Origin: Candidatus Altiarchaeota archaeon
GTDB lineage: Archaea > Altiarchaeota > Altiarchaeia > IMC4 > SCGC-AAA252-I15
Assembly: GCA_043804895.1 (NCBI GenBank)
Contig: JAZDIN010000025.1
Span: 36,764-100,763 of the forward strand
DNA: 64,000 bases
Reading direction: 5' to 3'
The notes beneath the pieces are model-generated. The model worked only from the letters and a program-made list of their open reading frames with translations. It was not told the DNA's origin and made no database searches. This document shows, piece by piece, positions 3,662 to 50,046 of this stretch (position 1 is the first letter of the stretch; each line of letters opens with the position of its first letter). Position numbers and translations under genes: made by a program.

Positions 3662-4966
3662 TTAAATATACTCGTTTTTGAGCAGGTGTTTAACTGCTTC
3701 GTGTAGGTTTTTGAACGTGTAGTCTGGTTTGACATCGTATTTGCCGTCTCTGCAGGCGTGGCCTGTTTTCACGCCAACGGTCTTTATTCCCGCGTTTTTG
3801 CCGAGTTTTATGTCTCTTGTCGAGTCTCCGATTATGTACGATTTTTTCAGGTCTATGTTGAACCTTCTAGCTGCCTCCCTTATCATCCCCGTCTTCGGCT
3901 TACGGCATTCGCAGTCTGTCTTGTATCTTCGATTTTCCCCGTTGTATCCTCTATCCGGGTGGTGGGGGCACCAGTAGATTGCATCTAGTTTTGCGCCTTC
4001 CTTGCCAAGGAGGGTTTCCATCTTCTTATGGACCTCCTCAACATCTTTGAAGGTGCAGAGGCCTCTTGCCACGACCGGCTGGTTTGTTACTACGATAGCA
4101 AGGTGTCCTGATTCGTTTATCCTTCTTATCGCCTCTACCGAGCCTGGGATGAGTTCGAAGTTTATGGCTTCGTTGAGGAGGTGTCTTTCCACGTTTATGA
4201 CTCCGTCTCTATCAAGAAAGAATGCAGGCCTCTTTTTCTCTAGGTTGTATTTTCTTGGCAGTCCCCTTGTGTAGTCCCTCCTCACCTGCCTCAGCCTTTC
4301 AGGGGTCCCCATGTCCTTTATGTATTCCGGCGTGTTGTATCCGAATACTCTTTCCTTTGCCTTAATCATCCTTGGGAACACTTCCCTGTAAAGGTCTGAT
4401 TTTCCCCTTCTTGGTATATGCCTGAGTACTCTCTCAGATAGAACGTGAACTCCGGCGTTGACAAGGTTAGTGTAGAATCTGCCATTCTGCATTGGTTTCC
4501 GGTGGAAGGCCGTTATCCTACACCGTGAATCCATTTCCAGGAGGTCTGAGTCATTTGGGTGGTTGTTCGGGTGTATTGTTAGCGTGGCGTTGGCTTTTTT
4601 TGCCTTGTGGAATTCCACAAGTTTTTTCAGGTTCATGTCCACCATTACGTCGCCGTTGAGGAGGATGAAGTATCCTTTGATTTTTCCTTCAATCAGTCTA
4701 AGGCAGCCTGCAGACCCAAGTGGTTTGTCTTCGATGGAGTATTCGATTCTGGCTTTGAATCCCCTCCCGTCTCCGAAGTGGTCCTCTATCCTCCCGGACA
4801 CGTGGCCTGTGCAGAGTATTATGTCCTTGAACCCGTATCTTGTGAGCAGTCTTATCTGGTGTTCTAGTAGTGGCTTACCACCCACTTCGATCATAGGTTT
4901 CGGGGTTTTTTCAGTCAGTTTCCCGAGTCTTTCACCTCTGCCGCCTGCGAGTATTACTGCCTTCAT
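3662..4966 (-). CDS. bifunctional sugar-1-phosphate nucleotidyltransferase (HddC-like) fused to a D,D-heptose-1,7-bisphosphate phosphatase (GmhB-like HAD)
   Basis: The N-terminal half begins MKAVILAGGRGERLG...KPM..VGGKPLL, an NTP-transferase fold. The C-terminal half carries FFLDRDGVIN (HAD motif I) and ...CECRKPKTGM... (the GmhB histidinol-phosphatase-family signature with a Zn-binding Cys pair). Total 434 aa. Confidence 0.65.
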   Translation of the reverse strand: MKAVILAGGRGERLGKLTEKTPKPMIEVGGKPLLEHQIRLLTRYGFKDIILCTGHVSGRIEDHFGDGRGFKARIEYSIEDKPLGSAGCLRLIEGKIKGYFILLNGDVMVDMNLKKLVEFHKAKKANATLTIHPNNHPNDSDLLEMDSRCRITAFHRKPMQNGRFYTNLVNAGVHVLSERVLRHIPRRGKSDLYREVFPRMIKAKERVFGYNTPEYIKDMGTPERLRQVRRDYTRGLPRKYNLEKKRPAFFLDRDGVINVERHLLNEAINFELIPGSVEAIRRINESGHLAIVVTNQPVVARGLCTFKDVEEVHKKMETLLGKEGAKLDAIYWCPHHPDRGYNGENRRYKTDCECRKPKTGMIREAARRFNIDLKKSYIIGDSTRDIKLGKNAGIKTVGVKTGHACRDGKYDVKPDYTFKNLHEAVKHLLKNEYI

Positions 4967-5002
4967 CTTTGGTAGTGATTTAATATTATAAGATAATATC
5001 TC

Positions 5003-6004
5003 TTGGAGGTTGAGATGATAAGTCTACTTGCTGTTTTGGCGGTCTCGTTTGCGTTCACTTACCTGACTGTCCCCTGGTTCATTCCGCGGCTTTTGAAGGC
5101 TAAGATAGCAGGCAGGGACATGAACAAGCAGGGCAACATTGTTGTTCCTGAGATGGGCGGTTTCGCCATCATAGGCGGCTTTTTGGTCGGGGTGCTGTTC
5201 GCCATCGCCCTCACCACATTCAATGTGGTTGGCGTGGAGATGAACCTCACATACGTCCTGGCTTGTCTGTCAACCGTCCTCCTCATGGCATTGATAGGGG
5301 TCATAGATGACCTCCTACTCTTGGACCAGCGCGTTAAGGCAATCCTACCTGTCTTCGCAGCGTTGCCTTTGGTTGCAGTCAGCGCTGGGGTTCAATCGAT
5401 GGAACTCCCTATTTTCGGCGTGGTCGACTTCGGTATACTCTACCCGCTCATCGTAATACCTATCGCAATCACAGGGGCATCCAATGCGACTAACATGCTC
5501 GCCGGGTTCAACGGGCTTGAGGCCGGGTTGGGGATTGTCATGTGCTCGACCGTCGGGTTGGTGGCCTACAGTCTAGGTCGTGTCGAGGCTGTTGTCATCG
5601 TGTTCGCGATGCTTGGCGCCCTTTTGGCGTTCCTCAGGTACAATTGGTACCCTGCCAGGATCCTCATAGGCGATGTCGGGACTTTGAGCATCGGGGCTGT
5701 CGTCGCCTCGTCCGTGATTGTCGGCAACATAGAGAAGGTCGGCATCATACTGATAGCTCCATTCTTCCTCGAGCTTTACCTTAAGGCAAGAAGCAGGTTT
5801 AAGGCGCAATCATGGTGCGAGCTTAAGGGTGGCAGGCTCCTCTGCCCTAAGTTGAGCGAGGTTTATGGCATTGGTCGGCTTGTAATGTATATCAACGGGG
5901 GGGTATCGGAGAGGAAGCTTGTGCTGAGCATCATAGCGTTCGAGTGTCTCTTCGCATTACTTGCGTTGTATTCGTTTTCTGGGGTTTTATTGGCTACCAT
6001 ATGA
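5003..6004 (+). CDS. UDP-HexNAc:polyprenyl-phosphate HexNAc-1-phosphate transferase (MraY/WecA/AglH family)
   Basis: Polytopic membrane protein with the ASNATNMLAGFNGLEAG and VIDD motifs of the glycosyltransferase-4 (GPT) family. Confidence 0.7.
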   Translation: MEVEMISLLAVLAVSFAFTYLTVPWFIPRLLKAKIAGRDMNKQGNIVVPEMGGFAIIGGFLVGVLFAIALTTFNVVGVEMNLTYVLACLSTVLLMALIGVIDDLLLLDQRVKAILPVFAALPLVAVSAGVQSMELPIFGVVDFGILYPLIVIPIAITGASNATNMLAGFNGLEAGLGIVMCSTVGLVAYSLGRVEAVVIVFAMLGALLAFLRYNWYPARILIGDVGTLSIGAVVASSVIVGNIEKVGIILIAPFFLELYLKARSRFKAQSWCELKGGRLLCPKLSEVYGIGRLVMYINGGVSERKLVLSIIAFECLFALLALYSFSGVLLATI

Positions 6005-7125
6005 TGAAAGTCTGCATGGTTTCAAAGCACTTCCTCCCCTACTCTGGGGGTTTGGAGGTGAGGGTTCTGGAGCTGGCAAGGTGGCTTGTCGGCAAGGGAG
6101 AGAAGGTTCTGGTTTTGACCACTCACGAGCCCAGAACCAAGTCATCAGAAGTTGTTGACGGCGTTGATGTGAGCAGGTCGAAGGTCTGGTTCAGTCTGTT
6201 CAACGGGCCATTCTCCCCAGGAGTGCTTCTTGACCTGTTAGAAAGAGAATATGACATTATTGACGTGAACCTTCCCGACCCTGTGGGTAGCGTCTGGGCT
6301 TACATCGCTTCTGTCATCAGGGGTAAGCCTCTATTCGTAACTTACCATGCCGACATATTGAAGGACGGGATAATCTTCCTACCTCTTAAAATAATATACG
6401 GCCCACTACACTGGATTCTGTTGCGGCGTGCTGTCAGAATCTTCGTAACATCCCCGAACTACGCACAGTCCTCGGCGGTGCTTTCTGGATTCATGGCCAA
6501 GGTCGTGGTCGCTCCAAGCTTCGTGGACCTTAAGAGGTACAATCCCTCGGTTGACAACTCAAAGGTCAGGGAGAAAATGGGTCTTTCAGGCAGGAAAGTT
6601 GTGTTGTTCGTAGGCAGGCTCGTGGAGTACAAGGGTTTAGATTACCTCGTCGAGGCAGCTGGAATGTTGAGCGATGCGGTTTTCGTGATTGTCGGCGACG
6701 GTCCCCTGAGAGGCAGACTGGAAAGGAAGGTATTGGCGTCTGGTGTCAAAAACGTACTCCTCGCAGGCCATGTCGGTGATGGCGAGCTTTCTGGCTACTA
6801 CGGTGCTTGCGACGTCTTCGTCCTGCCTTCTGTCACGCGGCAGGAGGCGTTCGGCCTAGTCCTTGTTGAGGCGATGGCGTGCGGCAAACCCGTCGTCTCA
6901 ACGAACTTCTCAGGGATGCCCTATGTCGTCGACGGCGGCGGCCTCCTGGTGGAACCCAGAGACGCTGTTGCATTAGCTGAGGCATTGGGCAAGATACTTG
7001 CGGACAGTGCCCTGGCATCTGACCTGGCGGAGAAGGGCGTTAAGAGGGTCAGGGATTTCTTTGCAAGGGATGTCGTGTGCTCTAAGATTAGTGAAATATA
7101 TAAGTCTTCTGTTCGTAAGGGATAA
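6001..7125 (+). CDS. GT4-family (GT-B, group 1) glycosyltransferase
   Basis: N-terminus MMKVCMVSKHFLPYSGGLE and a C-terminal EAFGLVLVEAMACGKPVVSTNFSGMPYVV...GLLVEP EX7E-type motif. The ATG at 6001 was chosen over the 5944 extension, which overlaps the upstream gene. Confidence 0.75.
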   Translation: MMKVCMVSKHFLPYSGGLEVRVLELARWLVGKGEKVLVLTTHEPRTKSSEVVDGVDVSRSKVWFSLFNGPFSPGVLLDLLEREYDIIDVNLPDPVGSVWAYIASVIRGKPLFVTYHADILKDGIIFLPLKIIYGPLHWILLRRAVRIFVTSPNYAQSSAVLSGFMAKVVVAPSFVDLKRYNPSVDNSKVREKMGLSGRKVVLFVGRLVEYKGLDYLVEAAGMLSDAVFVIVGDGPLRGRLERKVLASGVKNVLLAGHVGDGELSGYYGACDVFVLPSVTRQEAFGLVLVEAMACGKPVVSTNFSGMPYVVDGGGLLVEPRDAVALAEALGKILADSALASDLAEKGVKRVRDFFARDVVCSKISEIYKSSVRKG

Positions 7126-7128
7126 CCG

Positions 7129-8139
7129 ATGGTCATACACACTCGCGCCCCTGTCAGGATAAGTTTCGGAGGCGGCGGAACCGACGTTTCACCATATACT
7201 GAAGAACATGGTGGATGCGTCGTCAGCGCCGCAATAAACAAGTACGCATCGGGTAGTGTGGAGTTGAGGAAGGACAGGGAAATCCACCTGAAAGACAGCC
7301 ACACCAAAGGTTTGACATTCAAGTCCACTGATGACATAAAATACGGGACTCCACTCGACCTCCTTGCCGCAGTCGTCAAGAACATGCACTCCACTAAGGA
7401 AGGCCTCAACCTTAGGCTGCGTGGCGACGTGCCTCCAAGAAGCGGACTCGGGTCCTCGGCTTCGGCGTTCATAGCGCTGATAGGATTGTTCAATCACATG
7501 CGAAGGGAGTCGAGGATGACGGACTACGAGATAGCGGAGCTAGCGTACAACCTCGAACGCGAGGAACTCCACAACAAAGGCGGACGCCAGGACCAGTACG
7601 CGTCAGTGTTTGGGGGCATCAACTACATCGAGTTCCGCGGCCACGATTTCGTGAGGGTTAATCCAGTCCGGATGAGGAGGGCTCACCATCTTGAGCTTGA
7701 GAAAAACCTTGTACTCGTCCACATCATGGAACGCAGCAAATCAGGTGACATAATCTCAGACCAGATAGACTCCTATGTGAAGGGGAAGAAGGAAGTTGTG
7801 GCGGCTCTCCACAAAGTCAAAGCCCTAGCGGAGGAAACCCACCACTCCCTCAGAAAAGGAGACCTCAACCGCTTCGGCGAGCTCCTGCACGAAGGATGGG
7901 TTGAGAAGAAAAAGTTCAGCCCGATGATGAGCAACGAACACATAGACCGGCTGTACGAGAAGGCCCGCAAGCACGGCGCAATCGGGGGGAAGATAGGCGG
8001 AGCCGGCGGCGGAGGCCACATGATACTCTACTGCGAATCAGGCAGGGAGGAAGAAGTCGCGAAGGTCTTCTCAGACGCTGGCTCGACAGTGAGAAGTTTC
8101 AGCTTTGACATGCACGGGCTTCAGACCTGGGAGGTGTGA
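7129..8139 (+). CDS. hddA: GHMP-family sugar kinase, D-glycero-alpha-D-manno-heptose-7-phosphate kinase (HddA)-like
   Basis: MVIHTRAPVRISFGGGGTDVSPY closely resembles the HddA N-terminus. The GHMP motif PPRSGLGSSASAF and a C-terminal GGKIGGAGGGG are also present. Confidence 0.6.
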   Translation: MVIHTRAPVRISFGGGGTDVSPYTEEHGGCVVSAAINKYASGSVELRKDREIHLKDSHTKGLTFKSTDDIKYGTPLDLLAAVVKNMHSTKEGLNLRLRGDVPPRSGLGSSASAFIALIGLFNHMRRESRMTDYEIAELAYNLEREELHNKGGRQDQYASVFGGINYIEFRGHDFVRVNPVRMRRAHHLELEKNLVLVHIMERSKSGDIISDQIDSYVKGKKEVVAALHKVKALAEETHHSLRKGDLNRFGELLHEGWVEKKKFSPMMSNEHIDRLYEKARKHGAIGGKIGGAGGGGHMILYCESGREEEVAKVFSDAGSTVRSFSFDMHGLQTWEV

Positions 8140-9302
8140 GTTTGAGACTCGGCTACGTCAGCCAGTACTTCACCAGAGAGTACCGCGGCCCAGTCACTAA
8201 CCTCCTTATTGAGCTTTCGAAGAAGGTTGACGTCGTCAACTACTCCTCAAAAGAAAGGCATGCCCAATACTACTCCGGCGGCGTCCACGCCATGGATTCC
8301 GAGAAAATCGGCGACCACCTCAGCCTGCGCAGGTATGAGGTTGGCTTGAAGTTGTCTGGTGTTCTCTTTCCGAAGAATCTCACCCCACTCATCTCGCAGG
8401 ACAAGCTGGACATTATACAGTCTGAAGAATACTATCAGCCTGCGTCGCACATCGCATTCAAACATGCGCGGAAAAATGGCATACCATTTATATTCAACCA
8501 CCGTGGAAGCGAGGAGCGGAAAAGAACGCTGAAGGAGCGCGTTTTCTTCACTATGGCGAATCCAATGAGTAGAGGCCTTGTCGAAGGCTCAGACGCGATT
8601 GTGTGCATCTCTGAGGCAGGGAAGAAGGCGTTGTGTGTTGTATTCCCCAAGGCACAGGACAAAGTCCACGTAATACCGAATTCAATAGACCCGCTATTAT
8701 TCGACGGAGCAAATGGTCGCTCGTTCAGGTATGAATACAGGATACCTGAAGCAAGCCCGCTCCTCCTATGTGTCGCCCGCCTACACTTCCAAAAGAGGAT
8801 AGACCTCCTAATCAGGACATTCGCTGAGGTGAAGAAACAGTCTCCTGATTCAGTCCTTTGCGTCGTAGGTCCGTGGTTTGATGAGGAGAAGAGGAAGGTC
8901 GATTCACTAATATCAAAGTTGAGGGTCGATGACGTGGTATTCACAGGACCTATACCAAACGACAACGTCAAGGACGCCTACGCGGCAGCCGACGTCGTCG
9001 CCATGACATCAGAATACGAACCGTTCGGCTACTGCCTCCTCGAGGCTATGTGCCTTTCCAAACCGGTTGTGGCATTCAACATAGGGGCGGTACCGGAGAT
9101 AATAGAAGATGGCGTCAGCGGCTATCACATCCCATTTGCGGACACCAAAGGGTTGGGTATGAAAATCTCAACCCTCCTCAACGACAAGAAACTCTCAAAG
9201 AAGATGGGCAAGGAAGGTCTAAGGCGAGTGAACGAGAAGTTCAGCCTGAGCGACAACTCCAAACGACTGATCAAGCTTTACGAGAGAATGGTGAAAAGAT
9301 AA
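8136..9302 (+). CDS. GT4-family glycosyltransferase
   Basis: C-terminal TSEYEPFGYCLLEAMCLSKPVVAFNIGAVPEII.DGVSGY motif; GT-B two-domain size. Confidence 0.7.
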   Translation: MSLRLGYVSQYFTREYRGPVTNLLIELSKKVDVVNYSSKERHAQYYSGGVHAMDSEKIGDHLSLRRYEVGLKLSGVLFPKNLTPLISQDKLDIIQSEEYYQPASHIAFKHARKNGIPFIFNHRGSEERKRTLKERVFFTMANPMSRGLVEGSDAIVCISEAGKKALCVVFPKAQDKVHVIPNSIDPLLFDGANGRSFRYEYRIPEASPLLLCVARLHFQKRIDLLIRTFAEVKKQSPDSVLCVVGPWFDEEKRKVDSLISKLRVDDVVFTGPIPNDNVKDAYAAADVVAMTSEYEPFGYCLLEAMCLSKPVVAFNIGAVPEIIEDGVSGYHIPFADTKGLGMKISTLLNDKKLSKKMGKEGLRRVNEKFSLSDNSKRLIKLYERMVKR

Positions 9303-10849
9303 TGGCAGATGAGATATCCCTGAAGGACGTGATGCTGAAGGCAAGCGTCACAATGATGGCAATCATGGTAGCCTCAAGATTCCTAGGTTACTTATTCCAC
9401 CTAATATTCGTCAGGTCATTCCCCCAAGAAGATTACGGCACATTCATCTTCGTCTGGTCCATGGGCCTCTTCCTGTGCGGTCTCATACCCAACATACCTG
9501 CTGCCATGGGCCGTTACGTCGCATTCTACCGCGGCGGAAAAGACAGTAAGGGGTTGGAGTCTACAATATCCACCGGCCTACTACTCAACACCGCTCTTTT
9601 AATCCTGGCTTTGGCCATCACCTCCACTATTTACCTGTCTGGATTATACTCATTCGGCATCAAAAACCATCCATCGTTCGCCTTCATGTTATCAGCCATG
9701 ATACTGACCTCAGTGAGTTGCCTCTTTGGAGGCATACTCACCGGCCACCGAAGGCCGGAGGTCTCGTCGTTCTTCAACTTCCTACAGAACCTGCTTAGAA
9801 TATCAGCTGTTGTCTTAGCGGCACTGCTTTTGGCGTCCCTATGGGGTGTCATGGTCCTTGTGGCATTCTCATTCCTTCTTTCCACAATGCTCCTCATTAT
9901 ATACGAGCACAGGACCTACGGCTTCGGTCGCTCATTCGACGCTGGCATTGCGAAGAAACTCATCGGTTTCGGGTTTTTCAGCATCATCCACGTGACCTCA
10001 AACAACATGCTCTCCTGGGCTAACATATTCCTCCTGCAGTTCTTCCTAAGTTCGGCAGTCGTTGCGGTCTACAACGTCGCATGGCTTGCATCGACAGTCA
10101 ATTTGCTCTTCTTCACAGCTGTGCTTCAGATATTCTCCCCCGTGGTGACTGAGCTGTTCGGTGCCAAGAAAAGTGAAAGGATATCCTACATCACCTCCTA
10201 CCTCATTGAATCATTCTTCCTCCTGTTCCTACCCATTTTCCTCGCGGTGTTTATTTTCGCTCGTGAAATCCTTGTCCTGTTCGTAACTTCAGACTACCTC
10301 CAGGCAGCTGACCCCCTTCGAATACTCTCATTAAACGCGTTCTTCTTCGGCATAGCGATGCTATTCATAGAGCTTATCAACGCGGAAGGCAGGCCTGAGC
10401 TTAACGCCAGGAACATCGGATTCGGTGCACTGTTGAATTTGGCCCTGAACCTGTTGTTAATACCTCCGTTAGGGATGTTTGGCTCAGCGTTGGCGACGCT
10501 CGCATCATCAGTCGCAATACTGCTTCTGTCATACGGTCACGTGAGGGGCGTAGTGCGACTGTCATACTCTCCCCTCAGGATATGCAAACTATTCGCATCC
10601 TCGATTCTAACCATCCTCTCCATCTCTGTCATCAAGGAGGCTGTTGAGGCCTCGGTAATATCACTCGTCTTGTCGTCAGTATCCCTCGTCCTCATCTACT
10701 GCCTGCTGGTTGTCGCATTGAAGTCCCTACGGCAGGAGGACGTGATGCTGGCATCGACTCTTATGGACAAGTTCAAGATCCCGACCGTACTCAGACATGG
10801 TATCTCACGCCTCCTAGGATACGGCGTCTACTCTAAGACTTCCTCGTAA
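9302..10849 (+). CDS. oligosaccharide/polysaccharide flippase (Wzx-like, MOP superfamily)
   Basis: Roughly 12-14 TM helices across 515 aa, with typical polysaccharide-biosynthesis-protein topology. The start was taken at ATG 9302 (MADEISLKDV) rather than the overlapping 9050 extension. Confidence 0.6.
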   Translation: MADEISLKDVMLKASVTMMAIMVASRFLGYLFHLIFVRSFPQEDYGTFIFVWSMGLFLCGLIPNIPAAMGRYVAFYRGGKDSKGLESTISTGLLLNTALLILALAITSTIYLSGLYSFGIKNHPSFAFMLSAMILTSVSCLFGGILTGHRRPEVSSFFNFLQNLLRISAVVLAALLLASLWGVMVLVAFSFLLSTMLLIIYEHRTYGFGRSFDAGIAKKLIGFGFFSIIHVTSNNMLSWANIFLLQFFLSSAVVAVYNVAWLASTVNLLFFTAVLQIFSPVVTELFGAKKSERISYITSYLIESFFLLFLPIFLAVFIFAREILVLFVTSDYLQAADPLRILSLNAFFFGIAMLFIELINAEGRPELNARNIGFGALLNLALNLLLIPPLGMFGSALATLASSVAILLLSYGHVRGVVRLSYSPLRICKLFASSILTILSISVIKEAVEASVISLVLSSVSLVLIYCLLVVALKSLRQEDVMLASTLMDKFKIPTVLRHGISRLLGYGVYSKTSS

Positions 10850-11955
10850 AGCTGCATAGTCTTTGCTGCTATACTATCCCAAGAATGCGGCAGAGCGCTC
10901 TTTCTGGCTTTCGCGCTCATCCTGCCTAGGAGGTCATCATCCAGCACGTGTCTGACCTTCTCTGCAATGTCCTTTCCCTCCCTCTCTATGAAGAATCCGT
11001 TCTCCCCCTCCCTTATCAAATCCTCAGTGCCGTTAACGAGGGTCGCAAGGACTGGAAGGCCTGATGCAGCCGCCTCGAGCGTGGCCATGCTAAACCCCTC
11101 ATATGCGGTCGGGAACACGAATAGGTCGGCTGATGCATAGTACTTCCTGGCTTCACTTGAGTGTCCTGTGAACACGACTCTATCACTGACGCCCAATTCA
11201 GCAGCGCGTCTCTCATAAGGTTGTCTTTTGTCGCCGCCGACTGCGACCAGTTTCACGTCCTTCGGCAGGTGTGGTAAGGCCTCGATTACGTGCCTCAGGC
11301 CCTTTCTCTTGAACTCCCATCCAACGAATAGTAGGACGATGTCGTTTTCATCGATTCCGTGCATTCTCCTGACGTCAGTCCTGTATAACTTCCTGTTCTC
11401 TGGTGTGAACTCCTCTATGTTGACACCGTTTGGTATCAGCCTAATGTACTCATCAGGGACCCCATAGTAATGTTGTACCTCCCTGAGGTTGCCCTTTGAC
11501 AAGGCAATCAACTTCTTAAAGTTCCTGTGCGTTAGGTTGTACTTCTCTATTTGTAAGACGATGTTTGACGCGGGCTCGAAGGTCTTCAGCACCCTATACC
11601 CGAAGCCCCTCTCCCTCTTGAACTGTTCGACCGCAGCCTTATGGCAGCTTGGCGCCTTAAGTATGTTCTGGTAAAGCGACTCAGCCCCCTGACTGTGTAT
11701 GATGTCGAATTTATGTTCCTTGTCGAGCTTCCTTGCGAACACCGTGTTCTTCACTGCATTGAGGCCGATTAGCATATAATACGGCCATCGTGGTATCGGG
11801 ATCTTGTGGAATGTCACGCCGTCTATGTCGTGTTTCTGCCATGTAGTCAGGACGTGGACTTCATTGTCTTTCGCGAACCTTTCAGCCAGTTCGACAGCGT
11901 ATTTCGCGACCGCGCCCTGCTTGAAAAAGCTTGCAGTCAGGAAAAGTATTTTCAC
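10828..11955 (-). CDS. GT4-family glycosyltransferase
   Basis: MKILFLTASFF... N-terminus; C-terminal YEGFSMATLEAAASGLPVLATLVNGTEDLIREGENGFF motif. Confidence 0.75.
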   Translation of the reverse strand: MKILFLTASFFKQGAVAKYAVELAERFAKDNEVHVLTTWQKHDIDGVTFHKIPIPRWPYYMLIGLNAVKNTVFARKLDKEHKFDIIHSQGAESLYQNILKAPSCHKAAVEQFKRERGFGYRVLKTFEPASNIVLQIEKYNLTHRNFKKLIALSKGNLREVQHYYGVPDEYIRLIPNGVNIEEFTPENRKLYRTDVRRMHGIDENDIVLLFVGWEFKRKGLRHVIEALPHLPKDVKLVAVGGDKRQPYERRAAELGVSDRVVFTGHSSEARKYYASADLFVFPTAYEGFSMATLEAAASGLPVLATLVNGTEDLIREGENGFFIEREGKDIAEKVRHVLDDDLLGRMSAKARKSALPHSWDSIAAKTMQLYEEVLE

Positions 11956-15019: not shown

Positions 15020-15038
15020 TACAAATACGCGAGGATAT

Positions 15039-15089
15039 TCGCTAGACTGCAGTCTAGCGAATGTGTGCGAGCATGGCTCGCCCACATTC
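15039..15089. promoter_or_regulatory. two adjacent palindromes upstream of the GT4 gene: TCGCTAGACTGCAGTCTAGCGA (perfect, 22 nt) and GAATGTGTGCGAGC-ATG-GCTCGCCCACATTC (31 nt, one mismatch)
   Basis: Read directly; they lie 20-70 nt upstream of the 15019 start and downstream of the stop of the methyltransferase gene. Confidence 0.4.
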
Positions 15090-15172
15090 CCTTTACTCGC
15101 TTGCACCTCCTACGTGTTTTCGACTGTTTGACATTTTAAGTGTTAATACTGACGCCTTTAAGATTCGGTCAT

Positions 15173-20082: not shown

Positions 20083-20135
20083 AATGCCTTTAACTTCTCT
20101 TTAAAACCCTTAACTGTTAAATAATTTAAAGTAAA

Positions 20136-21134: not shown

Positions 21135-21213
21135 TGGACGAATGACTGTCCTCGCACGAAGACAACCCCCGGGAAGAATATTAAGGGATAATATACAAGT
21201 GTTGTGAAAGAAG

Positions 21214-22434: not shown

Positions 22435-22435
22435 C

Positions 22436-24219: not shown

Positions 24220-24225
24220 AAAAAC

Positions 24226-42182: not shown

Positions 42183-43084
42183 TTAAGCTGCCTCCTGATA
42201 AGCTGGTCTAAGAGTATGTTCTGGCTTCTTATGGAGTGTAGTATAAGGCCGATTGCTATGAACTGTATGCCAAGGATTATGAAGGAGAGGGATGCGATTA
42301 GGCTGAGCATCATCATCTGGCTGTATGGAGTCGACGTCAGTGAGAGAATCGATATTATGAGGCCAATTGTGAGGGACACTATCGACAGTATCGAGAACAG
42401 GAACATCGGCCTATAGTCCCTCAACAGGGTTATTATCGTCCATAGTATTATGAAGCCGTCACTGAAGGAGTCGAGCTTGGATTCGCTACCTTTCGGGCGG
42501 GACCTGTATCTTATCGGAACCTCCTTTATTCTGAAATTCTCTATTAGGGTCCTTATCGTCAGTTCAGTCTCTATCTCAAAGCCACTTGATATAAGGTTAA
42601 GGTGTTTGGCAAGGTTCCGGTTCAACACCCTGTATCCAGAGAGCACGTCCTCAAGTTTCATGCCGAAGGAAGTGTTTATCATGGTGACTATAGCCCAGTT
42701 GCCAAAGACATGGAGCCTCTTCATCGAATCCGATTCCTTGTCCCCAATCCTTGAGCCTACTGTCATGTCACATTCGCCGTCCAAGACTGGCTTTAGAAGA
42801 TTCTTAACGTCCTCTGCAGGGTACGTGTCGTCCCCGTCAACAAATACGTAGTAGTCTGCATCGATGTTGTCAAGGGCGGATTTCATCACGAAACCCTTGC
42901 CTCTGCGCGTTTCAGTCAGGACCTTGGCCCCGGCTTTCTTTGCAGCCTCCACAGTCCCATCGGTTGAGTTGTTGTTGTAGACTATTATGTCGGCGTCTGG
43001 AATCTCCCTCCTGAAATCCTTCACCACCTTTCCTATACTCTTCTCCTCGTTCAAGGCCGGGATTATTACTGCTGTCCTCACCAT
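42179..43084 (-). CDS. GT2-family polyprenyl-phosphate glycosyltransferase (Dpm1/GtrB-like) with C-terminal TM helices
   Basis: MVRTAVIIPALNEEKSIGKVV...IIVYNNNSTDGT...FVDGDDTY. The start was set at ATG 43084; the 43216 extension overlaps the upstream gene. Confidence 0.7.
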   Translation of the reverse strand: MVRTAVIIPALNEEKSIGKVVKDFRREIPDADIIVYNNNSTDGTVEAAKKAGAKVLTETRRGKGFVMKSALDNIDADYYVFVDGDDTYPAEDVKNLLKPVLDGECDMTVGSRIGDKESDSMKRLHVFGNWAIVTMINTSFGMKLEDVLSGYRVLNRNLAKHLNLISSGFEIETELTIRTLIENFRIKEVPIRYRSRPKGSESKLDSFSDGFIILWTIITLLRDYRPMFLFSILSIVSLTIGLIISILSLTSTPYSQMMMLSLIASLSFIILGIQFIAIGLILHSIRSQNILLDQLIRRQLK

Positions 43085-44463
43085 TTTTTCCAAAACATCG
43101 CAGGCAACGCATACCTTGCCGCACTCAAAATGTGCTCCAATTCCCCGGGGTTCCTGAGGGTCCTCAGCATATACTTGGGTCTCAGGTAATAAGACCTGAC
43201 GCCCCTTTTCGCCCACTCCCTGATTTCCTCGTTGCTCATGTGCGGGTAGCTAACTTCGCCGTTTTTTAGGCAGCCTCTTGAATTGAGCTCCGCATACATC
43301 GGGGCTGCCTTCGTGATTACTGGTATTGAGTACTGTATTGTCTCCACGTCAAGCGAATTAGCCCAATTTACCGTGTTTTTTATCGTCTCCTCCGTCTCTC
43401 CTGGCAGTCCGACTACGAAGTCTGCGTGTATCTCAAGGCCAGCTTTTTTAGCGTCTTTCGTGAACCTCTCCATAGTCTCCCTTGTAATGCCTTTCCTTAT
43501 GTTTTTCAGTATCGTCGGGTCAGCGGATTCATACCCTACATGCAACACCCTACATCCCGCCTTCTTCATCTTCTCCATCGTCTCAAGCTTCAGGTCGCCT
43601 TTGGCGTAGCAGCCCCATGTCACATCCAGCTTTTGCCTTATCACCTCCTCAGAAATCTCATCAGCCCACCATCCTGGCAGCATGTCATCTTGGAAGAACT
43701 GCTCCTTAATCTGCGGGAGGTTCTCCTTCACCCATCTCATCTCCTCCACGACATTGCTGGCGCTCCTGTGCCTGTACACTCCGGCCTCAGTTAGGGTGTT
43801 AACCCACAGGCAGAAGGTGCACATACCCCACACGCACCCGCGGCCTGTGAACATGTCAATGAACGGGTGCTTTTGCGCCACGACATGGTAGTTCCTGAAG
43901 TCCAGGTTCCTGCTGTAGAATTCGGTCACGAATGGGAAACTGTCTAAGTCTCCCTCAGGAATAGGAGGCCTCGGCTTGTTCTTAACGATTTTTCCGTTCC
44001 TCCTCCACATCAACCCCTCGATTTCAGCCGAGTTTTTGCCTGCAGCCAGGTCCCGTATGGTGTAGTCGAACTCACCGTATGCGACGTAGTCTATCTCATC
44101 AGAGGAGTTCATGACAGCGTCCGTGTCAATCGTAACCCAAGGGCCTGCGTAGACGATTCTCGAGCCAGTCTGCGACTTTATCTCATCGGCCAGTTTGGAG
44201 TCGTCTTTGAGGCTTCTCGTCGAACTATACAGTAGCGTCAAATCAGGCGATAACTTCTTAGCCTTCTCAAGTACCTGTTCAGGCGTCAGGTTCTCTGGTG
44301 GGGCGTCGACAAGCTTGACATTATGTCCCTCACGTTCAAGCAGGGCTCCGCAGTATCCGAGCCATATGGGGTACCATTGCGTGCCTGAGATTGACACTCC
44401 TTCACATCGCGCGTTCCGCATGAAATACTTCACGTACGGCGGATTCAGTAACAAGACATCCAT
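43078..44463 (-). CDS. class B (B12-binding) radical SAM enzyme, copy 3
   Basis: MDVLLLNPPYVKY...YPIWLGYCGALL B12 domain; GRGCVWGMCTFCLW radical-SAM motif. Confidence 0.65.
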   Translation of the reverse strand: MDVLLLNPPYVKYFMRNARCEGVSISGTQWYPIWLGYCGALLEREGHNVKLVDAPPENLTPEQVLEKAKKLSPDLTLLYSSTRSLKDDSKLADEIKSQTGSRIVYAGPWVTIDTDAVMNSSDEIDYVAYGEFDYTIRDLAAGKNSAEIEGLMWRRNGKIVKNKPRPPIPEGDLDSFPFVTEFYSRNLDFRNYHVVAQKHPFIDMFTGRGCVWGMCTFCLWVNTLTEAGVYRHRSASNVVEEMRWVKENLPQIKEQFFQDDMLPGWWADEISEEVIRQKLDVTWGCYAKGDLKLETMEKMKKAGCRVLHVGYESADPTILKNIRKGITRETMERFTKDAKKAGLEIHADFVVGLPGETEETIKNTVNWANSLDVETIQYSIPVITKAAPMYAELNSRGCLKNGEVSYPHMSNEEIREWAKRGVRSYYLRPKYMLRTLRNPGELEHILSAARYALPAMFWKKW

Positions 44464-44555
44464 TGCTGTTCATCTCATGTTTGCCAGCATTTATCCCCTA
44501 CCCTTGCTGTCGTACTCTATGTATGGCTTTATCCCCTTAAAGCGGTCGCATACTC

Positions 44556-45275: not shown

Positions 45276-45279
45276 ATGT

Positions 45280-46242
45280 TCAACCGCCAGCCTCCTTTAT
45301 CCTCCCTAACCCCTCTGCCATACTGGTTTTTGGTTTCCAACCTAATGCGCAGAGTTTTGTGTTGTCTGAGCGTATATCCTTACTCTCCTTCCTCAACTTA
45401 GCTGAATCCAGATTAACCTCTGGTCTGCGTCCGTATAATCCAGCCGCTGTCTTAACAACGTCGCCTAATTGCATGCTTTTTCCGCCGCCGACGTTGAAGA
45501 TGTTTAATCCCCTGACTCGTTTTTCTATGAGTATCATGTATGCGTCCACTAGGTCGTCTACGTATAGAAAGTCCCTCTTAACTGTGATGTTTCCCAACTT
45601 GAGTTTATTGCCTTCTGAAAGCTGATTTAAAAGTGTGGGTATGAAAAAGTCGCCCGCCTGTCCTGGCCCGTAGATATTAAACTGTCGAAGTATTATGAAA
45701 AATCCTCCCCGTTCCTCGTGGAATACTCTTATTAGGTCTTCAGCAGCCTTTTTAGACCTACCGTAGCTGTTCGTCGGATTTGTTGGGTGTTTTTCGTCAA
45801 CAGGCAGATACTTCGGTTCACCATAAACCTTCGAGGATGATGCGAAGATGTAATTCGCATTCTCGCACTTGGTATGGAACTTAAGCGTATTGTATGTTCC
45901 AATGACGTTTATATCGTACGTCTTAAGCAAATCTTCCTCTGCTTCGGGTATAAATGAAATTCCTGCAAGATGCACGACACAGTCTATGTCCAAGGGCAGG
46001 CTCCTGAAACTCCGGAAGTCCGATACATCAACACTGTGGTGTTCCACACCTGCCAATCCGGCACGCTTGATGTCGGCGCCGACAACTGCATACCCGCCCT
46101 CGACAAGGCGTTTGCACAGGTTGGCTCCTATGAATCCAGAGTAGCCGGTGACCAGAATGTTACCAGTCAATCCTACCCCACCATTTATCCTTGTTTTCTG
46201 CGTAGTATTTGATGGTCTCCTTAACACTTTCCCTTCTGTCAT
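45280..46242 (-). CDS. NAD-dependent SDR (GDP-4-keto-6-deoxy-sugar reductase/epimerase, Rmd/DmhB-like); start uncertain
   Basis: ILVTGYSGFIGANLCKRL; YGRSKKAAE. The track start is 83 nt inside the upstream gene; a TTG near 46170 is a more plausible start. Confidence 0.55.
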   Translation of the reverse strand: MTEGKVLRRPSNTTQKTRINGGVGLTGNILVTGYSGFIGANLCKRLVEGGYAVVGADIKRAGLAGVEHHSVDVSDFRSFRSLPLDIDCVVHLAGISFIPEAEEDLLKTYDINVIGTYNTLKFHTKCENANYIFASSSKVYGEPKYLPVDEKHPTNPTNSYGRSKKAAEDLIRVFHEERGGFFIILRQFNIYGPGQAGDFFIPTLLNQLSEGNKLKLGNITVKRDFLYVDDLVDAYMILIEKRVRGLNIFNVGGGKSMQLGDVVKTAAGLYGRRPEVNLDSAKLRKESKDIRSDNTKLCALGWKPKTSMAEGLGRIKEAGG

Positions 46243-47230
46243 GCCGGGGTATCCATCCTGTCTCTCTCCTCATCTTCGTATAATCCACTCCAAGCCTCAT
46301 CAAGTCGGTCTTACCTGGTCTGTACCTCACTTTATCCTCCCTCACCTTGACAGTACCCCAATACCCTTCCTCCTGTCCACATTCTATTATGAATTTGGCC
46401 CAGTCGCCAATGCTAATGTCCTTGCCGTAGCCGTAGGAGTATGTCTGCCCTGGCTTCCCTTTGAGTGTCGCGTAGATGTGTCCTCTCACGCCATCTAGGA
46501 CGTAGGTGAAGTCTCTCGTAGGCTTAAGTGCCCCCAATAGCACCTCCTTCTTGTTCAGGGCCTGCGTTATAATTGTCCCTGTCACATACCTGGGACTCTG
46601 CCTTGGGCCGTAGTTGTTGAACATACGGGTTATAACCGTCGGCACGCCATAGGCGTTGTAGAAGTTCTTGCATAGGAAGTCTCCCGCGACTTTAGAGACT
46701 GCATAAGGGCTTTCGGGATTGATAGGGCTTCTCTCGTTGAATATGATTATGCCATCCTTGTTGAACGTGTACAGGTCTTTCATCTCCTCTACCATGTTGC
46801 CGAATTCTTCGCTCGTGCCTGCAAAGTCCATTTTCAACAGGTCAAGGTCCTCATCGACTACCGATTGTAGGATGTTTAGCGTCCCGATGGTGTTCGCTTG
46901 GAATGTCTCATAAGGGCGCTGCCAGCTTTCCCCTACGTGTGCCTGCGCCCCAAGGTGGAAGATTATCGGCTTGTCTTTTGCCTCAGCCTTGAGCCTCCTG
47001 ATAGTCAACCTCACTGACAAGGGGTCGGCTAGGTCTCCTCTGTGCACCTTGACTTTCCTCAGGAGATGCCCGATGTTCTTCATCTCCCCGCTTGATGTCG
47101 CCCTAATGAACACATGAACGTCGCTTCCGTATTCAACAAGCTTCTCTGTCAGGTGGCTTCCCATGAAGCCGTCAGCTCCCGTCACAAGGATCGTCCTATC
47201 CCTCAACTCCCCCACAAGCCTGTCTTCCAT
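46160..47230 (-). CDS. NDP-sugar 4,6-dehydratase (GDP-mannose / GDP-heptose 4,6-dehydratase, Gmd/DmhA-like)
   Basis: ILVTGADGFMGSHLTEKL...VHVFIR; PYAVSKVAGD; NNYGPRQSPRYV; 4,6-dehydratase-length C-terminus. The start was chosen at MEDR (ATG 47230) with CTATATTTTA upstream. The 47305 extension is low-complexity. Confidence 0.55.
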   Translation of the reverse strand: MEDRLVGELRDRTILVTGADGFMGSHLTEKLVEYGSDVHVFIRATSSGEMKNIGHLLRKVKVHRGDLADPLSVRLTIRRLKAEAKDKPIIFHLGAQAHVGESWQRPYETFQANTIGTLNILQSVVDEDLDLLKMDFAGTSEEFGNMVEEMKDLYTFNKDGIIIFNERSPINPESPYAVSKVAGDFLCKNFYNAYGVPTVITRMFNNYGPRQSPRYVTGTIITQALNKKEVLLGALKPTRDFTYVLDGVRGHIYATLKGKPGQTYSYGYGKDISIGDWAKFIIECGQEEGYWGTVKVREDKVRYRPGKTDLMRLGVDYTKMRRETGWIPRHDRRESVKETIKYYAENKDKWWGRIDW

Positions 47231-47384
47231 AACCAAGATATTATTTTCCCCCGTTAAAATATAGCGGATAGGGAATACTTTGGAATTTCGGTTTTCCCTA
47301 TCCAATATATCTAATAATCCTGGGGTTTGGTGAATTCTATTCTATGAAAGTTTAATTCTCAGGATTATTCGCTATAGCCAAAGT

Positions 47385-47732
47385 TCACTGGCCAAATCCT
47401 ATGAGGGTGACACCCAGGATGATGAACGCTATCCCTGCCCACTTTAATGTAGTCATCCTCTCCCCAAGGTATTTTTGTGAGAGTACGCACACCCAGATGT
47501 AGCCTGTTGAGACAAGCGGGAAGAGCACCGAAAGTTCACCGCCTTTTATGCCGATGACGTAGAAAACCGTGGATGACCCGTATATCAGCACTCCCTTCAT
47601 CAGGTCGAAGTTCGTCAATATGGACTTGATGTTGGGTTTCAGCTTTCCTGCTCCTTTCTTGAAGTAGAGCGAGCCAAACGAGCCAACGAATGCTGCAAGC
47701 AAGACCATAGCTGCAGCCCACGCCTCTGTCAT
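47385..47732 (-). CDS. small 4-TM EamA/SMR-like membrane protein (ArnE/ArnF-like flippase subunit)
   Basis: 115 aa with four TM helices and LKWAGIAFIILGVTLIGFG at the C-terminus; it is paired with the next gene. Confidence 0.5.
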   Translation of the reverse strand: MTEAWAAAMVLLAAFVGSFGSLYFKKGAGKLKPNIKSILTNFDLMKGVLIYGSSTVFYVIGIKGGELSVLFPLVSTGYIWVCVLSQKYLGERMTTLKWAGIAFIILGVTLIGFGQ

Positions 47733-48097
47733 TTACCCCCCTCCGTGCTGCCGTAACCTATCAGGATGACTCCAACGACTATCGAGAATATCCCCGCCCA
47801 TTTCAGGGGGTTCATGCTGTCTGTTGCGAAGAACATCGGTGACATGATTGCTACCCAGATGAAGTTCATAGCATATATCGGGTAAAGCACAGACAGCTCA
47901 CCGTACTTTAATGAGACTACAAGTATCGCGGCGCTGAGGCCGTAGAGACAGTAACCGATTATTAGTGGTATGTTCGTTGCTACTGACATTATGTCAAGTA
48001 CTGTGCTGTTTACTCCGGTCTTGATGAGTATCTGACCTGACGCTGCGAACAATGTGGATAGGAACACCAGCCCCATAGCCCATCGTCTAGTCTTCAT
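47729..48097 (-). CDS. small 4-TM EamA/SMR-like membrane protein (ArnE/ArnF-like flippase subunit)
   Basis: 122 aa with four TM helices and PLKWAGIFSIVVGVILIGYG; it overlaps both neighbours by 4 nt. Confidence 0.5.
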   Translation of the reverse strand: MKTRRWAMGLVFLSTLFAASGQILIKTGVNSTVLDIMSVATNIPLIIGYCLYGLSAAILVVSLKYGELSVLYPIYAMNFIWVAIMSPMFFATDSMNPLKWAGIFSIVVGVILIGYGSTEGGK

Positions 48098-48774
48098 CCC
48101 AAACCCAGCCTATATCTGTACAACCTATACAGGTGTCTGAGGTAGTTTATGTACTCCCCTAAGTTCAGTTTGCTTTCGCCAACCCTGCGGTCGCGGAAAA
48201 TGTAAGGCACCTCAACGACTCTCCCATACTTCCCCTTTACCAATATCTCAAGCCCAATCTTGAAGCCGACTGCATCCAACTTTACACCCTCAATAACCTC
48301 CCTTCTGAGGAAGAAATATCCTGACATGCAGTCTCTCACACCAGTTAGAGGTCTTGCAAGCATTTTCGCCCCCCTTGAGGTGAGTCGCCTCATAATAGGC
48401 CAGTTCTCGACTCCTCCTCCTTCAATGTATCGGCTTGCGAACACCATCCCCGCATCCCCATTCAGGATTGGCTGTATAAGTTTCGGAATAAGTCTCGGGG
48501 GGTGGCTGAAGTCAGCGTCCATGACACCGATTATCTCACCTGATGATGCATTGAGCCCGTCAAGTATAGCCGAAGACAATCCCAGCTTACCTTTCCTGTG
48601 GATGACCTTAATCCCGTATGTGACAGCTAGCTGGTCCGCCAACTCCCCCGTCCCATCCGGGCTTCCATCATCTACCACGACGACTTCGACATCTGCATTC
48701 GAGAGTATGTCCTCTACAAGCCCCTTAAGGTTCTTCACTTCATTGTATGTTGGCACGACGACTGAAGCACGCAT
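48094..48774 (-). CDS. GT2-family polyprenyl-phosphate glycosyltransferase (ArnC/Dpm1-like, soluble type)
   Basis: [21 protein letters not shown]...[12 protein letters not shown]...[12 protein letters not shown]. Confidence 0.75.
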
Positions 48775-48830
48775 TTTTATGGTTAATGCATATAATTAGT
48801 GGAATATATTCGGTTTTGAGGTGGTTTCAG

Positions 48831-49487
48831 GTGAAATTCTTCATAGACACAGCCAATGTGGATGAGATAAGGACTGCCAAGTCCTGGGGCATACTAGACG
48901 GGGTCACAACCAATCCGACGCTACTTGCTAAGGAGGAATGCGACTTCAAGACAGCAGCAAAGGAGATACTATCCCTCGTCGAAGGCCCAGTAAGCCTTGA
49001 GGCGGTAAGCGCAGACGCTGAGGGGATGGTGAAGGAGGCCAGGGAACTCTCCAAGCTCGGCAAAAACGTCGTGGTTAAGATACCCATGACCCCCGAGGGG
49101 ATTAAGGCAGTGCAGAAACTAAGTTCAGAGGGAGTGAAGACGAATGTCACGCTCCTCTTCAGCGCCAACCAAGCCCTCATAGCTGCGAAAGCAGGGGCAA
49201 CCTACGTAAGCCCGTTCATAGGCCGCCTTGACGACCAAGGATGGGATGGTGTTCAACTCATAGCCGACATTCTTGAAATATACTCAAACTTTGGGTTCAA
49301 GACCGAGGTCATAGCTGCGAGCATCAGGGACCCGGTTCATGTGGCAGACTGCGCGAGGCTCGGCTGCCATGTCGCGACAGTGCCCTTCGGAGTCCTAAAG
49401 AAGATGTTCACACACTCTCTCACTGACGTCGGAGTACAGAAGTTCCTTGAGGACTGGAAGAAGGTCGAAGGCAGGTGCAAAAAATAG
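48831..49487 (+). CDS. tal: transaldolase (Tal/FSA family, short archaeal type)
   Basis: [14 protein letters not shown]...GVTTNPTLL...VVVKIPMT is the transaldolase signature. A GTG start at 48831 after GAGGTG is likely; the track gives an upstream TTG-type start. Confidence 0.75.
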
Positions 49488-49488
49488 G

Positions 49489-50046
49489 ATGGACAGAATA
49501 TCAAAGGAGATTGAGGAAAGCGTTGTAGTGAAGAGAACGCTCAAAGTAAAGGACATCGAGGAAGCAACCAAGCTGATAGTGGACGCACTCAAATCAAAGC
49601 GCAAGATTCTCCTTTGCGGAAACGGTGGAAGCGCCGCTGACTGCCAGCACATCGCAGGCGAATTCGTAGGCAGGTTCAAGAAGGAGCGGCAGGCCCTGCC
49701 TGCAATAGCGCTCTCGACTGACACGTCAATCCTCACCGCCCTCACCAACGACTACGGCGGAGACATAATATTCTCACGGCAGGTCGAGGCCCTCGGGAAT
49801 GAGGGGGATGTGTTGGTTGCGATATCAACCAGTGGAACCTCCTCCAACATACTCAAAGCAGTCGAGGCAGGAAGGAAGAAGGGGATGAAGGTCGTCGGAT
49901 TCACAGGAGCCAAAGGCCAGAAACTGAAAAGCCTCTCAGACGCCTGTATCATGGTCGGCTCAGACGACACCCCACGGATACAGGAAGCCCACATCACCGC
50001 AGCACACATAATATGCGGACTGGTCGAGGAAAAAGTTGGTAACTAA
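49489..50046 (+). CDS. gmhA: sedoheptulose-7-phosphate isomerase (GmhA, SIS domain)
   Basis: KILLCGNGGSAADCQHIAGEFVGRF...LSTDTSILTALTNDYG...GDVLVAISTSGTSSNIL matches GmhA motifs closely. Confidence 0.8.
   Translation: MDRISKEIEESVVVKRTLKVKDIEEATKLIVDALKSKRKILLCGNGGSAADCQHIAGEFVGRFKKERQALPAIALSTDTSILTALTNDYGGDIIFSRQVEALGNEGDVLVAISTSGTSSNILKAVEAGRKKGMKVVGFTGAKGQKLKSLSDACIMVGSDDTPRIQEAHITAAHIICGLVEEKVGN

Follow-up and report, generated by a model that had tools for sequence, protein, structure and literature searches.

Does the glycan island of an uncultivated archaeon encode a complete route to nucleotide-activated heptose and, if it does, for which surface polymer would the sugar be made? The question is raised by a 64-kb stretch of DNA from a Candidatus Altiarchaeota archaeon (assembly GCA_043804895.1, contig JAZDIN010000025.1, positions 36,764 to 100,763; hereafter, the window), which carries archaeal markers such as Gins51, archease, RFC, an archaeal flagellin-type protein and the ribosomal proteins L44e and S27e. 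A dense glycan island spans ~3.6 kb to 50 kb of the window, and in it we recognized a GHMP kinase of the HddA type, a D-sedoheptulose-7-phosphate isomerase (GmhA), a short-type transaldolase and a protein in which a nucleotidyltransferase is fused to a heptose-1,7-bisphosphate 7-phosphatase (GmhB) (Table 1). An earlier reading of the bare sequence (the original prediction) had placed all four elements at these positions, and they were confirmed by family and PDB matches. Gene identities, intact motifs, conserved synteny and gene fusions were observed directly, and we consider it quite probable that the island encodes an alpha-type nucleotide-heptose pathway, the four activities of the nucleoside diphosphate (NDP)-heptose route being present and plausibly acting together.

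Identification of the putative heptose enzymes

The putative heptose kinase, which begins with MVIHTRAPVRISFGGGGTDVSPY, contains both the GHMP_kinases_N and the GHMP_kinases_C domains (PF00288 and PF08544). Its top NCBIfam model is HddA (NF049969), matched full-length (1-336 of 338) with 214.5 bits versus 96 for mevalonate kinase and 75 for galactokinase, which makes HddA the best family by more than 100 bits. The top four PDB matches are all heptose-7-phosphate kinases, from Bacteroides thetaiotaomicron (3k85, 2e-59), Burkholderia pseudomallei (WcbL, 4usk/4usm, 1e-54 to 4e-55) and Campylobacter jejuni (4n3o, 1e-48), while non-heptose enzymes matched far more weakly (fucokinase, 2e-15; mevalonate kinase, 6e-12). 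The GHMP motifs RAPVRISFGGGGTD, PPRSGLGSSAS, GGRQDQYA and GAGGGG are intact. The protein did not group with mevalonate kinases or galactokinases; such a grouping was what the original prediction had named as speaking against it.

Counterparts in many Altiarchaeota metagenome-assembled genomes (MAGs) are 64 to 84% identical to the window kinase. In a rough neighbor-joining tree, whose placements are provisional since it has no bootstraps and sparse taxon labels, the window kinase belongs to an Altiarchaeota clade nested among mainly archaeal sequences, those of Woesearchaeota and Aenigmatarchaeota included, and the Thermoplasmata kinases form another clade among bacterial sequences. We provisionally regard it as a member of a divergent, archaea-dominated branch of HddA. 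A recent bacterial transfer of hddA is not indicated by this placement, and a bacterial origin, which the original prediction had proposed to test, is not evident for this gene.

GmhA scored 211.8 bits with TIGR00441, above the curated equivalog cutoff of 209.45, and shows the SIS fold (PF13580, 5e-31). In the alignment with B. pseudomallei GmhA (PDB 2xbl, 7e-55), the active-site and metal-site stretches QHIAGEF and IQEAH..AH are conserved, and GNGGSAADCQHIAGEF and PRIQEAHITAAHI match the bacterial sequence. In the Escherichia coli and B. pseudomallei structures, the catalytic and metal-binding His and Glu residues lie near GNGGSAAD..QHIAGE and the Gln and His in the C-terminal IQE.H...H. GmhA proteins of other Altiarchaeota MAGs are 64 to 79% identical, and the nearest matches outside this phylum are mixed (Micrarchaeota, Chloroflexi and Actinomycetota, at ~60 to 65%).

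The transaldolase gene lies directly upstream of gmhA, as had been stated, and ends 2 nt before its ATG; the open reading frame (ORF) is listed from 48747, and the real start is the GTG given in Table 1. Its product scored 317 bits with TIGR00875 (cutoff, 246), a family that also includes fructose-6-phosphate aldolase. The latter identity was rejected: the best PDB matches were 1vpx (3.7e-89) and 3s0c (1.6e-77), the closest solved transaldolases, those of Thermotoga maritima (301 bits) and Thermoplasma acidophilum (263 bits), scored far above the aldolase (only ~136 bits), and the Glu and SPF residues of the transaldolase type are kept in the aligned stretches PVSLEAV and YVSPFIGR. As in the T. 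acidophilum transaldolase, this type has Glu where the aldolase type has Gln, and Phe in place of Tyr. A transaldolase 79% identical is found upstream of gmhA in another locus (L008). The gene is in an operon with gmhA, and the enzyme is a likely source of sedoheptulose-7-phosphate (S7P).

The fused protein had been described as GmhB-HddC. Both domains are present, but the order is reversed, with NTP_transferase (aa 2-233) preceding GmhB (aa 246-431). The GmhB domain matches E. coli GmhB (3l8e, 8e-32) and keeps HAD motifs I to IV and the Cys/His zinc loop (FLDRDG, VVTNQ, CPHHP...CECRKP and GDSTRD), with Val instead of Thr as the third residue past the nucleophile. It is above the cutoff in the HAD-IIIA and histidinol-phosphatase-like models TIGR01656 (134 versus 84) and TIGR01662 (112 versus 45). 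The nucleotidyltransferase domain is covered by PF00483 (3e-35), and its LAGGRGERLG fits the GGxGxRL signature of the RmlA/GMPP fold. The fusion gene is from a widespread mobile "cassette" family with thousands of homologues in DPANN archaea and bacteria.

Linkage of the heptose genes in relatives

The scattered layout described in the original prediction is real: hddA and the fusion gene are ~2 kb apart, and gmhA is ~41 kb away at the opposite end of the island. Since the heptose genes are split between the two island edges, relatives were compared for functional linkage. In every neighborhood inspected (Altiarchaeota L001, Woesearchaeota L002/L003 and L089/L090, and marine Bacteroidota L091/L092), members of the fusion family lie directly beside an HddA-like GHMP kinase gene and a GmhA-like SIS gene. 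The order in the altiarchaeal L001 is short-chain dehydrogenase/reductase (SDR), fusion, GHMP, SIS and GT4; no orthologue of the SDR that precedes the fusion in cassette loci was found in the window, where the best match (33544-34485) has only 31 to 34% identity. In Woesearchaeota L089, the cassette adjoins AglB/STT3 and a flippase, and the kinase and isomerase are fused into a protein of 540 aa. Another HddA-GmhA fusion (P0192, 556 aa, SIS plus GHMP) is 56% identical to the window kinase. Fusion relatives of ~625 aa carry a third, PRK/uridine-kinase-like domain (PF00485; L089 6001-9509, L091 6001-7869 and relatives including P0011, P0018 and P0100). This domain was considered as a replacement for HddA and rejected, because the GHMP kinase is still adjacent.

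In a wider survey, the kinase profile was run over one genome per GTDB species. Relatives appeared in Altiarchaeota, Woesearchaeota, Micrarchaeota, Hadarchaeota, Methanosarcinales, Methanomassiliicoccus, Thermoplasmata, Halobacteriales, Nitrosotalea and many bacteria. Among 19 archaeal hddA loci, from several phyla, gmhA was found within 0.7 kb in 8, gmhB in 7 and a nucleotidyltransferase gene in 6. Compact operons of hddA, gmhA and gmhB, some with the nucleotidyltransferase gene, were thus present in 7 to 8 of the 19. Five of the six loci with a nucleotidyltransferase gene also have both gmhA and gmhB; in these five, it lies ~2 kb or less from hddA, with a product 31 to 41% identical to the N-terminal domain of the fusion, and next to kinase relatives of 52 to 57% identity, gmhA, gmhB and the nucleotidyltransferase gene are 0.6 to 1.9 kb away. 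In Aenigmatarchaeota L006, hddA-gmhA-gmhB is followed by a complete nonoxidative pentose-phosphate operon (TK-N, RpiB, Rpe, TK-C and Tal), an arrangement that supports a coupling of S7P supply to heptose synthesis. Together with the adjacency of tal and gmhA in the Altiarchaeales genome GCA_014727915.1, it gives comparative support to the link between transaldolase and heptose that had been proposed. E-values and this conserved synteny exclude a chance origin of the heptose gene set.

Comparison with two other Altiarchaeota genomes shows that the heptose genes mark the conserved borders of a variable island. The left edge in GCA_014727915.1 reads Cas4, S17e, SppA, ..., GPT, GT4, HddA, GT4, Wzx, GT4, GT4 and AsnB, and the right edge, ~29 kb away, reads tal, gmhA, gmhB, AAA, GINS, L44e, S27e and archease. 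The operon GPT-GT4-HddA-GT4-Wzx has the identical order in the window. The second genome, GCA_043813075.1, has the same operon genes, but with extra genes between GT4 and hddA and with Wzx directly after hddA. Its island is shorter, with HddA ~10 kb from gmhA, and gmhA-gmhB lies between an ArnC/ArnE/ArnF-like module and the AAA/GINS flank, both as in the window.

Directly after gmhA, both sister genomes have a stand-alone gmhB. None was found in the window, in which only 86 bp separate gmhA from the AAA gene, and the only homologue there of the relatives' stand-alone GmhB is the C-terminal domain of the fusion (39 to 47% identity). The fusion gene itself is flanked by SppA and the phosphotransferase gene; in GCA_014727915.1, this place is taken by PMT_2 and TPR genes. 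We read this as a displacement of the stand-alone gmhB by the hddC-gmhB fusion gene in this genome, which also supports the GmhB assignment of the C-terminal domain.

Proposed pathway and destination of the heptose

The beta route to nucleotide-heptoses employs a ribokinase-fold kinase and a cytidylyltransferase-fold transferase. The GHMP kinase and RmlA-fold transferase of the window do not fit this (HldE) route but the alpha route, a GHMP kinase with an RmlA/GMPP-fold nucleotidyltransferase being the hallmark of the latter (PMC10680097). The proposed steps follow the characterized alpha route. What the enzymes catalyze is predicted here, and the same holds for the anomer and nucleotide, for the isomer of the final heptose and for the acceptor. 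S7P would be provided by the transaldolase, perhaps also by a split transketolase (see below), and converted by GmhA to the 7-phosphate of D-glycero-D-manno-heptose. HddA would then phosphorylate C1 to give the alpha-1,7-bisphosphate, the GmhB domain would remove the 7-phosphate to leave the alpha-1-phosphate, and the nucleotidyltransferase domain would produce the NDP-heptose. A neighboring GT4 most likely adds the activated heptose to a polyprenyl-linked oligosaccharide, which would be flipped and then go into a glycoconjugate of the cell surface, be it an N-glycan or a different glycan of the envelope. Since hddA lies inside the conserved operon of N-acetylhexosamine (HexNAc)-1-P transferase, GT4, HddA, GT4 and flippase, entry of the heptose into a polyprenyl-linked oligosaccharide bound for the cell surface is most likely. 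In favor of an N-glycan, the altiarchaeal hamus protein has been predicted to be glycosylated (PMC4460559).

Several observations weigh against this pathway. The analysis covered a 64-kb window of a 150.8-kb MAG contig, and no oligosaccharyltransferase AglB was found in that window. The kinase score of 214.5 bits is below the HddA equivalog cutoff of 600, and the GmhB domain falls just below the cutoffs of PRK08942 (169 versus 178) and TIGR00213 (133 versus 150). The HddC model gave the nucleotidyltransferase domain 83 bits versus a cutoff of 300 and was outscored by the top NCBIfam model, mannose-1-phosphate guanylyltransferase (NF052502, 174 bits), as well as by the MurU and archaeal GlmU-type models; in PDB, the order was UTP-glucose-1-phosphate uridylyltransferase (8x7s, 105 bits), GDP-mannose pyrophosphorylases (~95) and HddC (5xhw/6jq8, ~70). 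The domain is thus closer to UDP-glucose and GDP-mannose pyrophosphorylases than to characterized HddC, its use of GTP is a prediction, and we regard it as HddC-like in role rather than as a member of the HddC family. Finally, the usual kinase and SIS partners of the fusion family are only 31 to 35% and 25 to 31% identical to HddA and GmhA of the window, and in the rough tree, the cassette kinases branch off deeply as a clade of their own. They were rejected as orthologues on these grounds. The pathway here would hence be a hybrid whose compatibility is assumed, and we provisionally propose that an hddC-gmhB fusion was imported and acts together with gmhA and hddA genes native to the lineage.

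These points allow other explanations. One of them denies a single pathway: the kinase and the fusion would act on a hexose, e.g., mannose or a related sugar phosphate, and GmhA and the transaldolase would belong to unrelated central metabolism. The 41 kb between the genes and the subthreshold scores of the kinase and both fusion domains, with a mannose-1-phosphate guanylyltransferase model as the best for the nucleotidyltransferase, would agree with it. We consider it highly improbable, since GmhA passes its equivalog cutoff and is not known to have a role beyond heptose synthesis, the four best structural relatives of the kinase are heptose kinases, hddA, gmhA and gmhB are adjacent or fused in many archaea, and the gmhB that directly follows gmhA in sister genomes is present here only within the fusion. 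Another alternative keeps the alpha-type pathway and concerns the nucleotide. A product other than GDP-heptose, made from UTP, CTP, dTTP or ATP, would agree with the low HddC score, with a UTP-dependent enzyme as the best PDB match, with the good scores of MurU (UTP) and GlmU-type models and with the documented NDP promiscuity of beta-route heptose nucleotidyltransferases (PMC11461863). Such a product seems unlikely to us. GDP, named in the original prediction, is the most likely nucleotide, because the best family is mannose-1-phosphate guanylyltransferase and all characterized alpha-route enzymes use GTP (PMC10680097); GDP-mannose pyrophosphorylases come next in PDB, and mannose-1-phosphate is the nearest hexose analogue of the heptose substrate. 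That part of the claim can be kept as a prediction, given the distance of the domain from the HddC cutoff.

Alternatively, heptose might be made for an envelope polymer other than an N-glycan, such as an exopolysaccharide or biofilm matrix, a glycolipid or an outer membrane lipoglycan. Besides the lack of AglB in the window, the Wzx-type flippase, PMT_2/ArnT-like GT-C proteins, ArnC/ArnE/ArnF-like module and LPG_synthase_TM protein of the island are equally typical of polysaccharide and lipid-glycan loci, and Altiarchaeum has an outer membrane and glycosylated diether lipids (PMC4460559). On the other hand, the hddA operon opens with an AglH/WecA-type HexNAc-1-P transferase, the usual starter of the lipid carrier of archaeal N-glycans, the heptose cassette adjoins AglB/STT3 in Woesearchaeota, the known archaeal heptose is N-linked (PMC11407970) and the hamus protein is predicted to be glycosylated (PMC4460559). 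We find this alternative rather unlikely, though slightly less so than a change of nucleotide. A remote variant, in which the heptose ends in a lipopolysaccharide-like lipoglycan of the altiarchaeal outer membrane, has only a very small probability in our opinion.

Other genes of the glycan island

The island contains ~15 glycosyltransferases (GT4 and GT2), one HexNAc-1-P transferase and one Wzx-type flippase. Also present are two amidotransferases of the AsnB type, many epimerases and dehydratases of the SDR family, several methyltransferases and radical SAM enzymes, and GT-C-like membrane proteins. Within the operon, hddA starts 4 nt downstream of one GT4 gene, and its last 4 nt are shared with the next. 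Its neighbors are syntenic in the Altiarchaeota loci L004 and L005, with identities of 73 and 67% for the HexNAc-1-P transferase, 58 and 57% for the GT4 upstream of hddA and 48 and 40% for the flippase, and the GT4 downstream of hddA is 65% identical to the syntenic L004 gene.

Table 1. Positions in the window of the predicted heptose genes and of the other genes in the hddA operon
Feature	Coordinates	Strand	Details
Fusion protein	3662..4966	-	434 aa; nucleotidyltransferase N-terminal, GmhB C-terminal
GmhB domain, heptose-1,7-bisphosphate 7-phosphatase (putative step 3)	3674..4231	-	aa 246-431; HAD-IIIA
HddC-like heptose-1-phosphate nucleotidyltransferase domain (putative step 4)	4268..4966	-	aa 1-233
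Polyprenyl-phosphate HexNAc-1-P transferase (AglH/WecA/MraY family)	5003..6004	+	First gene of hddA operon; PF00953, 1.2e-37
GT4 directly 5' of hddA	5944..7125	+	PF00534, 1e-38; true start probably near 6005
HddA-type GHMP heptose kinase	7129..8139	+	336 aa
GT4 directly 3' of hddA	8136..9302	+	PF00534, 1e-37
Wzx/MATE-type oligosaccharide flippase	9050..10849	+	PF01943 and PF01554; true start probably downstream of 9050
Short-type transaldolase	48831..49487	+	218 aa; GTG start, MKFFIDTAN...
gmhA, D-sedoheptulose-7-phosphate isomerase (putative step 1)	49489..50046	+	185 aa

The split transketolase (23362-26357, plus strand; PF00456, PF02779 and PF02780) consists of an N half (23362-24219) and a C half (25443-26357), and a radical SAM gene separates the two. 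They share 47 and 37% identity with the transketolase from the pentose-phosphate operon that adjoins hddA-gmhA-gmhB in Aenigmatarchaeota, and the enzyme is a possible second source of S7P, although its membership in the pathway is uncertain. It lies in a second sugar pathway (19306-26357, plus strand), together with a CDP-glucose synthase (RfbF, 333.9 versus an equivalog cutoff of 300), a 4,6-dehydratase-like SDR, a TylCIII-like C-methyltransferase and another SDR. This region may represent a branched or C-methylated CDP-deoxyhexose route, or its transketolase may be a housekeeping one that supplies S7P.

Two further SDR genes (45280-47305, minus strand) encode a 4,6-dehydratase-like protein (46160-47305) and a protein closest to GDP-6-deoxy-D-mannose reductase (45280-46242; 6x3b, 1e-33). 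The pair is not conserved in sister genomes. It was tried as a GDP-heptose 4,6-dehydratase and reductase, for which the similarity is weak and nonspecific; the pair could make a 6-deoxy-hexose or a 6-deoxy-heptose, a suggestion that we make very tentatively.

Next to the transaldolase gene, a module on the minus strand (47385-48774) is formed by a GT2 and a pair of short membrane proteins (115 and 122 aa) of the EamA-like type, similar to ArnC, ArnE and ArnF, and resembles a polyprenyl-phosphate-sugar synthase with its flippase. Both other Altiarchaeota genomes keep the EamA-like pair at this position beside gmhA/tal, and GCA_043813075.1 keeps the GT2 too. The two AsnB-type glutamine amidotransferase genes (11952-13847 and 16270-18144, minus strand) lie amid GT4 genes, one of them syntenic in L004, and suggest amidated uronic acids or similar glycan modifications. 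Four radical SAM genes, one of the SPASM type and three of the B12-binding type, are interspersed among glycosyltransferases and SDRs (34573-35637, 36621-38036, 38812-40251 and 43078-44463). Genes of the B12-binding type are also present in the glycan islands of Altiarchaeota L004 and L005 and of Woesearchaeota L002, and a role of the radical SAM genes in sugar or lipid C-methylation is possible.

Outside the island, a stand-alone Cas4-family nuclease gene (1382-2161, plus strand) adjoins SppA, an arrangement kept in GCA_014727915.1; no CRISPR array or further cas genes were seen among the ORFs examined. Two plus-strand ORFs without a Pfam match at an E-value of ≤1e-5 (52989-53975, 328 aa, and 54016-55500, 494 aa) sit between archease and a phosphoglucomutase/phosphomannomutase gene (55874-57199).

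Comparison with known heptose systems

The system shares with the characterized alpha route its four activities, the folds of the enzymes (SIS isomerase, GHMP kinase, HAD-IIIA phosphatase and RmlA/GMPP-fold nucleotidyltransferase) and its location in a surface-glycan locus. It differs in its archaeal host, in the fusion of phosphatase and nucleotidyltransferase, in the lack of a close HddC relative of its nucleotidyltransferase and in the archaea-dominated clade of its kinase. In C. jejuni, gmhB also lies outside the capsule cluster, which provides a precedent for the scattered layout. WcbL (4usk, 1e-54) and GmhA (2xbl) of B. pseudomallei are among the closest solved relatives. The heptose of the B. 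pseudomallei capsule is converted to 6-deoxy-heptose, whereas the window has only the weak candidate dehydratase/reductase pair described above.

The original prediction held heptoses to be outside the archaeal N-glycan repertoire. This is wrong, as the N-glycans of T. acidophilum contain D-glycero-D-galacto-heptose (PMC11407970), and the T. acidophilum glycan fitted well when modeled into the N-glycan density of a Cuniculiplasma pilin (PMC12448462). An archaeal protein glycan can therefore hold heptose, and HddA-type kinases are found in several Thermoplasmata MAGs. However, these organisms belong to another archaeal lineage with a separate kinase clade, their heptose is the galacto isomer versus the primary manno product expected here, and neither study (PMC11407970, PMC12448462) connected the glycan to genes for its biosynthesis. 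There were earlier signs of archaeal nucleotide-heptose synthesis: in 2013, the archaeon "Iplasma" was predicted to have a gene cluster for ADP-heptose (PMC3750248), and functional archaeal NDP-heptose enzymes were reported in 2024 (PMC11461863). Those cases represent the beta route, with HldE/HldA/HldC-type kinases and transferases, in contrast to the GHMP kinase and RmlA-fold transferase of the alpha route in the window. A survey of 303 archaeal genomes assigned GDP-heptoses to a "rare" group of monosaccharides, most of which were absent from Archaea (PMC7725333). Many of the proteins discussed here are already labeled as heptose enzymes in JGI and NCBI annotation. Our literature search found no paper on archaea with HddA and GmhA together and none that ties Altiarchaeota to a heptose pathway.

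Biological significance

With heptose already documented in archaeal N-glycans and the genes already so annotated in public databases, nothing is overturned by these results: the biochemistry of the original prediction was largely right, and its novelty was overstated. That the alpha route occurs broadly in uncultivated archaea appears to be underappreciated rather than unknown; it is widespread in archaeal MAGs and was found in Altiarchaeota, Woesearchaeota, Aenigmatarchaeota, Micrarchaeota, Hadarchaeota, Thermoplasmata, Methanomassiliicoccus and Nitrosotalea. Of modest interest are the heptose genes as conserved borders of the island and the fusion that seems to have replaced the stand-alone gmhB, which, like the fused enzymes themselves, offers a handle for enzymology. 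For Altiarchaeota, uncultivated archaea with an unusual double membrane and the grappling hooks called hami, the pathway gives a concrete and testable prediction of surface chemistry.

All known members of Altiarchaeota and of many DPANN lineages are uncultivated or barely cultivated. We tentatively suggest, at somewhat short of an even chance, that alpha-type nucleotide-heptose serves both groups as a building block for surface glycans that is conserved and lineage-wide, a proposal supported by the heptose genes at the conserved edges of a hypervariable island and by the Woesearchaeota cassette beside AglB. If so, archaeal glycoproteins, perhaps those of the glycosylated hami among them, would commonly contain a heptose that has been overlooked, and it would be made by an archaea-specific clade of HddA and by fused enzymes (nucleotidyltransferase-GmhB and HddA-GmhA).

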